A DNA stretch of 64,000 nucleotides from Longimicrobiales bacterium (GTDB lineage Bacteria; Gemmatimonadota; Gemmatimonadetes; Longimicrobiales; Gaopeijiaceae): positions 529,365 to 593,364 of the forward strand of contig JAWLHJ010000004.1 of the NCBI GenBank assembly GCA_041690395.1, in the 5' to 3' direction. Of this stretch, positions 35,759 through 58,926 are shown one piece after another (position 1 is the stretch's first letter; every line of letters starts with the position of its first letter). Made by a program: the position numbers and the translations under genes. The notes below the pieces were generated by a model. It was not told the DNA's origin. It saw nothing but the letters and a program-made list of their open reading frames with translations, and searched no databases.

Positions 35759-35789
35759 GCCGGACAAGATAAGGCCGGATGCCACCGGG

Positions 35790-35805
35790 CAGTTACCGCG
35801 GTAAC
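35790..35805. promoter_or_regulatory. Palindrome GTTACCGCGGTAAC over the -35 region of the formiminotransferase promoter
   Basis: Perfect 14-bp palindrome at 35792-35805; -10 TATCTT at 35766-35771 (minus); the same 16-mer occurs at 58267-58282. Confidence 0.55.
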
Positions 35806-35949: not shown

Positions 35950-37086
35950 TCAGGACCTACCGGGAACGAGCTCCGGGTTCCCCGGCTGGAGCTGGTAGGC
36001 CCAGTCGAAGATCATCACGCCACCGTTCTCGTTCTCCCCCTGCATCGTGACGCGGATCGCCCCGTAGTGGACCTCCCCGTCGTCACCGATGACTTCGAGG
36101 AAGTAGATGTACTCGGGCTCGATCGGTATCACGTCCTGCGTGTATCCGGTCGTTCCCGACGGAGCGATGGTAGCGTCGAGGCAGTCAAAATCCGCAGCCA
36201 CGCCGCACTTGAGTTGACTCGAGAAGAACCCTTCGTCATAGACCCACGTCCCGGCCGCAACGGTCGGCCGTAGCCACCAGAGACCGGTTCCATCGCGCTC
36301 GACGCTGAAATGCGCGTCCGGATCGTCGCCTGGCAGGATGGAACCGTCTGCGTCATCCTCGGGGAAGCGGAAGCCCGACGCCGAGTTATCGTCGAAGTAG
36401 TCGTAAATAATCTGTGCGGTATAATCCGGTCGCGGCGTCCCCGACGCGATCGTGCTCGACGCGCCCTCGTGCCCGTCCACGTCGACGGCCGTCACGAAGT
36501 AGTCGTAGGTCATCCCGTTCCCGGCCAGCAGGTCGAGGAAGCCCTCCGAGTCCGTTTCACCGAGCAGATAGTCGTTCCCATCCGGCGCGGCCTGGTAGAC
36601 GCGGTAGAACGAGAAGTCCGTGGCGTCCCGTGAGCGATCCCCCCAGACGATGTAATTCGCATCGTCCAACGCGATCACGCGGCTCTGGTCCGGGGCCGGA
36701 GGCGCGGTCCGCTCGGGTGAGAACACCTCGACGGTGAAGTCCGAGGGCGTCTCGAGGCCGGCACCCGGATCCCAGGCGGCCACGTAGTACTCGTACGTGA
36801 CGCTCGGCTCGATGTTGGTGTCGCTGTAGGAGCACAACCCGCTCGTGCAGCTCGTCACCTCGGCGATCAGGAAGTAGTCGGCGTCGCTCACGCGGCGGCC
36901 GTAGACGCGGAAGGACTCACCGTCCCACCCGGATCCCAGCTCCCAGGTCAGCGTGATGGCGCCGGCGTAGTAGCCGCCCTCCAGCGCCCTCGGTGCGGCG
37001 GGTGCCCCCACGACCACCGTCGAATCGTTGTTGCACCCGGCGGCCCCGATCAGGGTGGCGAGCACAACGAACATGACACGTCTCAT
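35950..37086 (-). CDS. Lipoprotein with fibronectin type III-like domains
   Basis: Lipobox AAGC; LTW..F.VY, YEYYVAAWD, YDYFVTAVD..G.E FN3-like strands; GAGGAG RBS. Confidence 0.8.
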   Translation of the reverse strand: MRRVMFVVLATLIGAAGCNNDSTVVVGAPAAPRALEGGYYAGAITLTWELGSGWDGESFRVYGRRVSDADYFLIAEVTSCTSGLCSYSDTNIEPSVTYEYYVAAWDPGAGLETPSDFTVEVFSPERTAPPAPDQSRVIALDDANYIVWGDRSRDATDFSFYRVYQAAPDGNDYLLGETDSEGFLDLLAGNGMTYDYFVTAVDVDGHEGASSTIASGTPRPDYTAQIIYDYFDDNSASGFRFPEDDADGSILPGDDPDAHFSVERDGTGLWWLRPTVAAGTWVYDEGFFSSQLKCGVAADFDCLDATIAPSGTTGYTQDVIPIEPEYIYFLEVIGDDGEVHYGAIRVTMQGENENGGVMIFDWAYQLQPGNPELVPGRS

Positions 37087-56971: not shown

Positions 56972-57317
56972 GATGGCGTCGTCGTTCCCCGTCCGTTGGC
57001 TCGGCGGCGTCCCCCCACGGGACCCCGCGGATCGCAAGCCCTTAAGGTAGCCCGGATCGGAGGGAAGGGAGAGGGGGCGCGCATCCGTCCCATCCAGACA
57101 TTGACAGGATTTCCAGGGTCGCGGTGGGGGTGACCGAGCACCCTCGCCTCGAGCCGCCCTCTCGCGCTCGGATGTCGCCCCAGGAGCGACATCGCGGCCC
57201 TCCGGTTCCGGAGTTGATCTCCACAGGCGCGTTCGTGCCGCGTCGGCCGACTCAGAAGGCCGCCAAACCGGCCTTTATATTGGAAGCAAGTCACTGCGCG
57301 CCCACGACTTGAGTGGG

Positions 57318-58850
57318 ATGGGACCCAGGTTTCGCGGCCAATCTGGCGATCGCCCGGACGCTACTTCGAGGATGGCCGCTACTACGAGGAGGAGGAGGAT
57401 GGGGAGGATGATGACGACGATGGCGAGTGACGCGCGCCTGACCCGCCTCGACCGGGTCGCCGAGCTATACGCCGGAATCACCGCTGCCACGCGGGTCTTC
57501 CTGGCGGCACTCGCCGAGTGCGACCGGCTCGGTGACTGGTCCGAGGAAGGGTTCACGTCATGCGCCGAGTGGCTCAGTTGGCGCCTCGGGATCACCCGGA
57601 ACACCGCCAACGAGAAGGTCCGCGTCGCCCATGCCCTCGAGCGGCTACCCGAGATCGCCGGCGCCATGGAGCGGGGCGAGCTCTCGTTCAGCAAGGTCCG
57701 GGCGCTCACGCGCGTGGCCACGCCCGACAACGAGCGCGAGCTGCTGCCGTATGCCCTCTCGGTGTCGGCGGCCGGGCTCGAGCGCTTCGTCCGGAGCTGG
57801 CGGGAGATCGATGGGGAGGATCCCTCCGCTCGGGAACGGAGACTCCATGCGCGCCGGACATTCTCGGTGTTTCCGGGCGAGGACGGGCTGTACGTCCTTC
57901 GCGGTCGGCTCACCCCGGAGGTCGCCGCCGTGCTGATGCGGGCGGTCGAAGCGGCCAGCGACGCGTTGTACCGCGAGGCCCGCCCAGTCCGCGAGCTCGA
58001 CCCGAACGCCCGGTTCGACCTCGACGACGAAGCAGACCGCCGCGCCGCCGCGCAGCGCCGTGCCGACGCGCTCGGGCTGATCGCGGAGCGCGCGCTGGCG
58101 GCCGGATTCGGGGACGACCGCGCGCCGGTGAGCGGGTCCAGGGCCGAGCGGTATCAGGTCGTGCTGCATGTGGGGGCGGACGGCGACGCGAAGCCCCGCG
58201 GCGCGGCGCCCCTCGACGACGGCGCGGCGCCCCTCGACCGCGGCGCGATCCTCGACGACGGCACGTCAGTTACCGCGGTAACTGCTCGGAGGCTCGCCTG
58301 TGACGCCGCACGGGTCGACGTGACACACGCCGCGGACGGCCAGGTCCTGGACGTCGGGCGCCGCACCCGCACGGTCCCCCCTTCGATCCGACGCGCACTC
58401 GAGGCCCGTGATGGCGGATGCCGCTTCCCCGGTTGCGGATCGCGCTTCACCGACGCCCATCACGTCGTGCACTGGGCGGAGGGCGGAGAAACGAGTCTGG
58501 GGAACCTCGTTCTACTCTGTCGAAGGCATCATCGGAGCGTGCACGAGGGAGGTGTCACGGTCGCCATCGACCGTCACCAGCGCATCGTGTTCTTCACTCC
58601 GGATGGGCGGGCGATGGCGGCGTGCGGAACGATGAAGGCCCGCGCGAGGGGGACGGCAGAAGCGAGGGGGATGGCAGAAGTGAGGGGGAAGGCAGAAGCG
58701 GGCGGGACGGCAGAGGCGAGAGTGGCCGCAGGGACGGGAGCGACCGGAGGGGACTGGCACACCTCACGCCCCTACAAGAGCGACGCGCTCGTTCCCTGGC
58801 GACTCGAGGCAGCCGCGTGGGAGGCCCTCGACCCGCCGGACGCGGCGTAA
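57318..58850 (+). CDS. DUF222 domain protein with C-terminal HNH endonuclease
   Basis: SCAEWLSWRLG..EKVRVAHALERLP..GELSFSKVRALTRVA (DUF222); RRALEARDGGCRFPGC..DAHHVVHWAEGGETSLGNLVLLCRRHH (HNH); start uncertain (57318-57420). Confidence 0.9.
   Translation: MGPRFRGQSGDRPDATSRMAATTRRRRMGRMMTTMASDARLTRLDRVAELYAGITAATRVFLAALAECDRLGDWSEEGFTSCAEWLSWRLGITRNTANEKVRVAHALERLPEIAGAMERGELSFSKVRALTRVATPDNERELLPYALSVSAAGLERFVRSWREIDGEDPSARERRLHARRTFSVFPGEDGLYVLRGRLTPEVAAVLMRAVEAASDALYREARPVRELDPNARFDLDDEADRRAAAQRRADALGLIAERALAAGFGDDRAPVSGSRAERYQVVLHVGADGDAKPRGAAPLDDGAAPLDRGAILDDGTSVTAVTARRLACDAARVDVTHAADGQVLDVGRRTRTVPPSIRRALEARDGGCRFPGCGSRFTDAHHVVHWAEGGETSLGNLVLLCRRHHRSVHEGGVTVAIDRHQRIVFFTPDGRAMAACGTMKARARGTAEARGMAEVRGKAEAGGTAEARVAAGTGATGGDWHTSRPYKSDALVPWRLEAAAWEALDPPDAA
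58644..58733 (+). repeat. 18-bp degenerate tandem repeat (ARGTAE-like x5) in the HNH gene tail
   Basis: GCGAGGGGGACGGCAGAA-like units at 58644, 58662, 58680, 58698 and 58716. Confidence 0.8.
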
Positions 58851-58860
58851 GCCGGGCGTA

Positions 58861-58926
58861 GCCGCGGCGCGAGCGGGGCGTGGCCGCGGCGCGAACGGGG
58901 CGTGGCCGCAGCGCGAACGGGGCGCA
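58861..58926. repeat. 22-bp tandem repeat x3 downstream of the HNH gene
   Basis: GCCGCGGCGCGARCGGGGCGTG-like units at 58861, 58883 and 58905. Confidence 0.85.

Follow-up and report, generated by a model that had tools for sequence, protein, structure and literature searches.

A DUF222-HNH protein of a Longimicrobiales bacterium probably recognizes a conserved palindrome within its own gene

Why should a gene keep a perfect DNA palindrome in codons that are rare around it, and why should the same word stand once more between genes of the same genome? The question is raised by a stretch of 64,000 nucleotides from a Longimicrobiales bacterium (GenBank assembly GCA_041690395.1, contig JAWLHJ010000004.1, positions 529,365 to 593,364 of the forward strand), here called the window, which holds a gene for a protein with a DUF222 domain and an HNH nuclease domain (Table 1). 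Comparison of this DUF222-HNH gene with its homologues, together with structure prediction, indicates that the protein very probably binds the palindromic site within its own gene. The evidence comes from the conservation of the site as DNA, from amino acid and base changes that accompany each other, and from the predicted fold of the protein.

A sequence-only reading of the window had pointed to an 18-bp perfect palindrome inside the DUF222-HNH open reading frame (ORF), and a direct check of the sequence confirms it: the 18-mer is in frame and encodes the peptide S-V-T-A-V-T. Its codons, described in that reading as atypical, are indeed all rare in the seven other genes of the window, where GTT and GTA make up 2.4% and 0.8% of 252 valine codons, TCA 0.7% of 135 serine codons and ACT none of 139 threonine codons. 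The 16-mer announced as a second copy is present and intergenic, but only its inner 14 bp are palindromic. Long palindromes as such are common in the window (17 of at least 14 bp, two of these of 18 bp), so the signal lies in the recurrence of the word and in its rare codons. In the host genome (4.33 Mb, 69% G+C) the exact 14-mer occurs twice, against 0.0008-0.0017 expected under Markov models of word length 4, 6 and 8; a scan of the window that allowed one mismatch found two occurrences, against a mean of 0.23 in shuffled sequence, and 2 of 100 shuffles reached this number. The host genome contains only one perfect free-standing copy. A third genomic match of the pattern proposed in the sequence-only reading (C2:678766) is non-palindromic, falls in an unrelated gene and was treated as chance. 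Palindrome totals for the whole genome, which contain artefacts from runs of N, played no part in the comparison.

Homologous DNA loci were located by the residues that follow the motif, which kept the motif itself from selecting them, and the mis-anchored loci L095, L105 and L107 were dropped before the locus and VSAET palindrome counts. In 120 homologous proteins the pentapeptide at the site reads VSAET (53), VTAVT (15), LSAES (10), FSAEN (9), VPAGT (2) or a near variant of these, and VAAAT is a further pentapeptide that stands on palindromic DNA. The statement that homologues often read VSAET or VPAGT here, on palindromic DNA, was correct and extends to LSAES, FSAEN, VAAAT and others. A 14-bp palindrome can encode the pentapeptide of 89 of the 120 homologues, compared with 15 of 1800 random pentapeptides. 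At the DNA level, 282 homologous loci comprise 135 perfect 14-mers, in 12 sequences, 54 sites with one mismatch and 93 with more. Among non-redundant genes that encode VSAET, 54 of 67 are palindromic, where their own codon use would give 6.6%, and the codons chosen are rare ones (GTT in 64 of 67, GAA in 62 of 67). The synonymous flanking pair is complementary in 87 of 96 genes of an earlier non-redundant set, against 53 expected. When excess pairing is summed for each of 113 axes in a 72-nt window, the axis of the palindrome reaches 1.36 and the next one 0.39.

The conserved unit is 16 bp long, and its pairs are named here by base number (0/15, 1/14, 2/13, 3/12, 4/11 and 6/9). On a tree of 318 branches, built with the site and the recognition helix masked, both sides of a pair change on the same branch 16 times for 6/9, nine times for 4/11, five for 0/15, four for 3/12, three for 1/14 and never for 2/13. 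Tests on independent pairs are significant for 6/9 and for 4/11, the pair that the sequence-only reading had singled out for a covariation test, borderline for 0/15 and not significant for the others. Pair 6/9 is the most informative and the best covarying of all, and the fixed CCGCGG core assumed at the outset proves too narrow. Compensatory changes include synonymous positions and recur on independent branches. From these covariation counts, the site is conserved as a DNA palindrome despite amino acid change and selection acts on the DNA, as had been supposed. Of the 93 loci with a decayed site, 16 have a perfect family palindrome at another place within the gene or next to it; in several copies of genome G369 (for example L336, L372, L325 and L370) it lies 60-100 nt downstream of the decayed site, in another reading frame and in a variable loop.

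The link between site and protein emerges from a scan of all protein columns against each site base. For bases 6 and 9, synonymous positions at a distance of 500 nt, one column is set apart from all others, that of residue 124. In 160 genes, Ala at this residue accompanies C6/G9 in 117 and Thr or Val accompanies A6/T9 in 31, other combinations being found in 12. Of the 17 changes of this residue, 15 fall on a branch where base 9 changes as well (p 3e-20), while the next of 327 columns reaches 0.004. The association persists on a tree made without the DNA-contact helices and the site, where independent pairs count 8.8 one way and 0 the other (p 0.004), and the neighbouring columns 121-123, 125 and 126 give no signal in this masked-tree test. 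Because residue 124 and bases 6/9 change together, self-recognition is indicated, and the suggestion that the palindrome is a cognate site of the DUF222 protein receives strong support from this co-change of residue and base. In an out-of-sample test on relocated sites (16 given), the code is right in 12 of 14 testable loci. Of 309 columns compared with the outermost pair, the best is that of residue 71 in the predicted recognition helix (Arg with C-G in 114 genes; Asn, Ser, Gly or Thr with A-T in 21), a ranking that depends on three joint changes. The end points of the structural alignment place residue 124 near ParB residue 226, and its region may correspond to helix 8 of ParB. In ParB, according to the available part of the source, the region 162-234 is crucial for parS binding, and helices 4, 6 and 8 touch DNA (PMC7383237).

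The protein belongs to the DUF222/13E12 family, a very large one with 7742 matches among 7997 candidates scored; its Pfam matches to PF02720 (E 1.6e-28) and PF01844 (E 1.4e-7) both lie above the cut-off, and its closest named homologues come from metagenome-assembled genomes of Gemmatimonadota. The HNH catalytic and zinc residues are invariant or nearly so in the 120 homologues, and the motif of this predicted nuclease is intact. The model of the 197 N-terminal residues has a predicted local distance difference test score (pLDDT) of 87. Its top four matches in VIA are ParB, KorB, Spo0J and KorB (Z 8.0, 7.6, 7.5 and 6.8, the next being 5.8), with root-mean-square deviations of 2.5-3.3 over 91-97 aligned residues, the best being 6s6h (Z 8.0, deviation 2.5, 97 aligned); the full-length model matches ParB-family structures at Z 10.1, 9.8 and 7.5. 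The top ten Foldseek matches of the N-terminal model are all Noc or ParB/Spo0J (E 0.011-0.044). From these models, residues 30-138 are predicted to form a ParB-family DNA-binding domain, in which the invariant Arg101 would stand in the register of ParB Arg204. Pfam finds no ParBc CTPase domain, and ahead of the ParB-like domain there are only about 30 residues, modelled as helix; the PF17762 profile does not match the gene. Residues from about 140 to 320 have no clear structural match, and a search of the ESM Atlas with residues 140-330 returned unnamed clusters at 0.90 only. A PDB sequence search gave HNH domains only (best E 0.002), NCBIfam gave sub-threshold matches only and PADLOC gave 0 matches.

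Copies of the site outside the gene follow the variant of the gene. In the fetched flanks, 81 extra copies differ by at most one mismatch from the variant of the gene concerned; they are spread over 58 of 189 loci, and the reversed word gives 0. Preferred places are the upstream region, a variable loop, the tail and the stretch directly behind the stop codon; at many loci copies gather near the promoter, 870-1470 nt ahead of the site within the gene. Genome G015, a single contig, contains two types of the gene and, matching them, two 16-mers in 9 and 5 exact copies; cross forms are absent, and the seven copies remote from its detected genes show no DUF222 remnant. In G444 and G407 a rarer variant is found both inside genes and elsewhere. 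Genomes searched hold between 0 and 47 copies of the site pattern, with a mean of 6.9 matches in 30 genomes with the gene and 1.1 in 31 without it, in-gene copies being included and related genomes not being independent. Two other genomes of the genus, G002 and G003, likewise have free-standing copies of the window's variant. Further copies stand directly behind stop codons, in the space between convergent genes or, in frame, within DUF11 repeats.

Two of these settings deserve description. Just after a stop codon and at most 10 bases from a contig end, a free-standing copy of the window's 18-bp variant is found in L111 (G002:C89:993) and L112 (G003:C1:2284), and assemblies may break at such sites. 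Giant DUF11 repeat proteins with 119-aa units (L389, G361:C28:450793-461875; L390, G369:C1:997211-1006151) carry the site in frame, in rare codons, in many of their repeats: 6 of the 32 listed units in G369 contain the exact variant of that genome's DUF222 genes, and 13 of 40 units in G361 contain a form one base off that genome's commonest variant.

The gene is part of a unit of about 1.8 kb with a conserved left end. A strict pattern of the left-end motif is found upstream of 71 of 185 full-length genes and matches the host genome twice, both times at DUF222 loci, and homology between paralogous copies ends near the stop codon. The window copy lies between ugd and a DegT aminotransferase gene, with the same synteny in G000, G002 and G004; G005 offers one empty allele, a 150-bp ugd-degT spacer without a match to the site pattern, the filled allele carrying the site. 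Genomes contain up to 18 DUF222 matches each, and presence is patchy. In mycobacteria, the 13E12/DUF222 loci are described, in the available parts of two papers, as hot spots of gene conversion with 87 events (PMC13061034) and as breakpoints or hot spots of inversion (PMC13157036).

Further features of the unit and its relatives were noted. A second DUF222 copy of the host genome, L171 (G000:C2:31095-31525), is internally deleted and frameshifted; it retains a perfect A6/T9 palindrome and, at a distance of about 140 nt, the left-end motif. The syntenic copy in G002 is full length. The ugd-degT spacer of G001 (L415, G001:C185:1881-3311) holds an unrelated gene of about 330 codons, methyltransferase-like by eye. 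Three minisatellites, with units of 21, 18 and 22 bp, lie in variable parts of the element: one just 5' of the palindrome (58199-58262), one in the C-terminal tail (58644-58720) and one spanning the stop codon (58841-58924). A scan for consensus promoters and terminators found nothing at the DUF222-HNH locus. A search of sequencing runs listed no RNA run with the sequence and gave small shares only.

Table 1. Positions of the palindrome, the DUF222-HNH gene and associated features in the window
Feature	Position	Strand	Remark
TATCTT, -10-like hexamer	35766..35771	-	7 nt before the ftcD ATG (35758); putative leaderless promoter
Free-standing copy, same variant	35790..35805	none	Palindromic without mismatch at 35792-35805; lies between ftcD and the gene that ends at 35950
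Left-end motif	57087..57112	+	Imperfect inverted repeat, then GATTT; paralogue homology starts 3-5 nt before the motif
TATATT, -10-like hexamer	57276..57281	+	Putative promoter of the DUF222-HNH gene; conserved upstream of homologues
DUF222-HNH ORF	57399..58850	+	483 aa from the database start 57399; alternative ATG 57420; PF02720 and PF01844
Predicted ParB/Noc/KorB-like DNA-binding domain	57486..57812	+	Residues 30-138; from models and fold searches
Predicted start of recognition helix	57597..57611	+	Residues 67-71; residue 71 tied to the outermost site pair, by only 3 joint changes
Codon of residue 124 (Ala here)	57768..57770	+	Ala with C6/G9, Thr/Val with A6/T9
Perfect 18-bp palindrome	58267..58284	none	Conserved unit is the central 16 bp (58268-58283), parS-sized; probable own binding site
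HNH nuclease motif	58419..58544	+	Cys341, Cys346, His354/355, Asn369, Cys374, His378 and His382 all present

What the protein might do at its site can be outlined. The comparative data make it reasonably likely that the palindrome is the cognate site of the DUF222-HNH protein within a compact selfish element which the bound nuclease helps to copy, and that docking serves spread or recombination of the element. The role in spread would fit the multi-copy, patchy distribution and the mycobacterial reports of gene conversion and inversion. Dimeric binding of the 16-mer by way of the ParB-like domain is very probable; each of the two copies would grip one half-site, the outer bases being contacted by the recognition helix and the inner pair by the helix that starts near residue 124. 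Docking would tether the HNH domain to the element that encodes it, whose extent would be from the left-end motif to roughly the stop codon, and a nick at the element would engage host recombination or repair, which would copy the unit into new intergenic spots and convert paralogues. The copy at 35792-35805 and other free-standing ones would serve as secondary docking sites or be remnants of this activity, and would not be conserved regulators of ftcD.

Several observations weigh against self-recognition by a ParB-like protein, or against mobility. The structural match is of moderate strength, as Foldseek E values are 0.011-0.044 and VIA Z scores lie between 8 and 10 in what is a helical domain, and a sequence-profile comparison with the host ParB is not significant (probability 0.4%). 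In the site, pair 2/13 lacks any joint change on the 318-branch tree and pair 3/12 is not significant by independent pairs (3.9 versus 2.0); apart from the columns that the site itself encodes, none in the protein accounts for pair 4/11. Residue 71 offers only two or three independent contrasts (sign test p 0.5), and the relocated-site test is right in only one of the three loci where Thr is predicted. Most actinobacterial and some proteobacterial homologues are without such a palindrome at the position or nearby. As for mobility, neither terminal inverted repeats nor a target-site duplication were seen when 28 listed copies were looked at by eye, 22 of them with the left motif (the copies are 73-92% identical, and old duplications may have been lost); the window copy is syntenic in three same-genus genomes, so it does not represent a recent jump; and an HNH domain alone cannot join DNA.

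The second copy in the window spans -47 to -34 from the ftcD ATG and overlaps the -35 position of the putative leaderless promoter. A TAnnnT hexamer lies 6-8 nt before a start codon in 20 of 30 ftcD orthologues (L131-L160), which suggests leaderless transcription of ftcD, and the true start is probably ATG 35758, not GTG 35785. The promoter over which the copy was said to sit is a putative one: the conserved hexamer suggests it, and the copy would overlap its -35 position, but a scan for consensus promoters and terminators found nothing at the ftcD locus. A special link of the site to this promoter does not hold. The copy occurs in 2 of 30 orthologous upstream regions, the other being G003, where it lies at -44 with unrelated flanks; it is absent from the other 28 regions, which include five same-genus genomes and two regions that are short or mis-anchored, and on this comparison a conserved regulatory role is unlikely, though the copy may have a local effect. 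None of the 30 loci has a DUF222 remnant within about 1.5 kb of ftcD, and there is no left-end motif near the second site, which gives no sign that this site is a decayed element.

Among the other explanations, autorepression survives best, although it is judged unlikely. The in-gene site would be an intragenic operator or roadblock that limits a toxic nuclease, and free-standing copies would titrate the protein or regulate host genes like ftcD. The same residue-base code fits this account, as do the extra copies around the promoter at many loci and the overlap of the second window copy with the putative -35 position; moreover KorB, one of the structural matches, is a repressor according to the available text of one source (PMC13768133). 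It is difficult to reconcile with a conserved copy about 870 nt into the ORF, with the presence of the ftcD copy in 2 of 30 orthologous regions and with copies after stop codons, between convergent genes and in DUF11 repeats, where repression makes little sense.

Decidedly less probable is a domesticated nuclease of defence or DNA damage, which would attack incoming DNA with parS-like words or be sequestered on its own sites until damage occurs. Four actinobacterial loci (L021, L033, L047 and L049) carry a perfect palindrome about 840 nt upstream of the site position, in the promoter region, presumably of the Gram-positive SOS-box type; these SOS-box-like palindromes and the intact HNH motif speak for such a function. 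When the upstream regions of lexA and recA were inspected by eye, no box shared with the DUF222-HNH promoter was found, which gives no sign of SOS control in this lineage. Mycobacterial members are LexA-bound and damage-induced, as given in the available part of one paper (PMC3381160). The absence of a PADLOC match counts against a defence role, and the multi-copy, patchy and decaying distribution with a sharp left end looks selfish; in addition, a gene whose nuclease is directed at sites in foreign DNA would not itself retain perfect ones.

A structure in single-stranded DNA or mRNA, or a symmetry kept up by template switching, is very improbable. Template switching perfects quasi-palindromes and could keep the symmetry without any binding protein; alternatively a hairpin like those of repetitive extragenic palindromic (REP) sequences could be the object of selection, since a 7-bp stem with a 4-nt loop is possible and free-standing copies are often intergenic, like REPs. 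Folding, however, is no better than in shuffled sequences (z -1.2 and -0.6), the best-covarying pair 6/9 falls in the would-be loop, G-T wobbles account for only 11 of 54 single mismatches, and there is no Rfam match in the window between 30000 and 64000. Neither form accounts for the co-change with a residue encoded 500 nt away, and it is this co-change that largely refutes them.

The idea of a loading site for the host ParB or a Noc-like host protein, carried by the element, has hardly any likelihood left. The layout of the motif is parS-like, as first noticed, being a 16-bp dyad, and two bases in the centre are all that separates one family variant from the parS core. The host, however, has two canonical parS (C1:255698 and 255784) between dnaA (C1:248307) and parB (C1:257699), and the window's 16-mer differs from host parS at 8 of 16 positions; a parS-type centre is found in only 1 of 135 perfect sites, and in G015 two variants are present side by side, either one paired with a different gene type. 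It is the DUF222 protein that the site follows, and a host loading function found no support. With dnaA, two canonical parS and parB within 10 kb, the region G000:C1:248307-257989 is the likely origin; two further DnaA-family matches lie at C4:471722-473278. Finally, mere coincidence of a conserved peptide with codon choice can practically be discarded, for although the peptide position is conserved and 27 of 120 homologues have common non-palindromic peptides there (VTAET, FTAEN, IAAET and others), rare codons are chosen, synonymous pairs covary and the site reappears in other frames and outside genes.

The preferred reading, a self-recognizing DUF222-HNH element, can be set beside known systems. 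It resembles ParB-parS, Noc-NBS and KorB-OB in the predicted DNA-binding fold, in the 16-bp dyad, in the putative register of Arg101 and in a specificity that apparently depends on few residues, located on helices which in ParB contact DNA (PMC7383237). It differs from parABS, Noc and KorB in that no CTPase domain stands in front and an HNH nuclease stands behind, in that no parA lies beside the gene, in that the site is inside the protein's own ORF and in that the gene is multi-copy and patchy. The window belongs to contig C4 whereas the host parS-parB-dnaA cluster is on C1, and the site of the element, unlike the parS of parABS, is not clustered at the origin. ParB-HNH fusions that keep the CTPase fold have been described, in a text whose available part makes no mention of DUF222 (10.1101/2025.10.10.680097).

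Closest by family are the REP13E12/13E12 repeats (DUF222, PF02720) of Mycobacterium tuberculosis, which share the Pfam domains and the dispersed copies. In the available parts of the mycobacterial papers, these repeats are called insertion elements, LexA-controlled, recombination-prone and without defined function (PMC13061034, PMC13157036, PMC3381160), and no binding site, ParB-like fold or element end is given for them. Most of the actinobacterial homologues fetched are without this palindrome at the position, in a comparison that excludes M. tuberculosis DNA. A search of the literature on DUF222/13E12 and on the self-site idea found no description of the site, with subscription papers, the original 1999 13E12 paper and supplements outside its scope.

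Among mobile systems, two comparisons are instructive. RAYT (TnpA-REP) nuclease genes with REP/REPIN sequences have cognate short palindromes beside the gene and dispersed between genes; similarly, the site variants of DUF222-HNH match the local gene, flank it and are dispersed intergenically. The nuclease here is HNH and not HUH/Y1, the site is a loop-less dyad of double-stranded type and not a hairpin, its main copy is inside the ORF, and the genomes searched have tens of site copies at most. No HUH/Y1 transposase domain was found, since Pfam, NCBIfam, PDB sequence and fold searches gave HNH and ParB-like matches only. Free-standing HNH homing endonucleases cut a site that is absent from their own allele and spread to one cognate locus. 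They share with the DUF222-HNH gene a selfish HNH gene in an intergenic position, a separate DNA-binding domain and a spread that would rely on host repair. The DUF222 element carries its site and occupies many unrelated loci, and the empty allele of G005 has no match to the pattern; classical homing, one of the roles first considered, does not fit an element that keeps its site.

More tentatively, and with some doubt, DUF222-HNH genes might represent an undescribed class of mobile element: a CTPase-less, ParB-derived reader fused to an HNH nuclease, which would read a parS-like word in its own ORF, copy itself by means of the word and the left end, and seed the word throughout the genome, including tandem protein repeats, where recombination would be promoted.

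DUF222/13E12 is still described as being without defined function, though its loci are hot spots of gene conversion and inversion. The family now gains a specific candidate substrate and a one-residue prediction, Ala or Thr at position 124 against C6/G9 or A6/T9. Rarely does nature preserve, in a single gene, the co-evolution of a DNA-binding protein with its site, where both must also satisfy the genetic code; the locus is such a case, and one in the ParB family outside chromosome segregation. If the reading as a mobile element is true, the residue-base code would turn the protein into a compact reprogrammable nickase and would explain the recombination hot spots at 13E12 loci.

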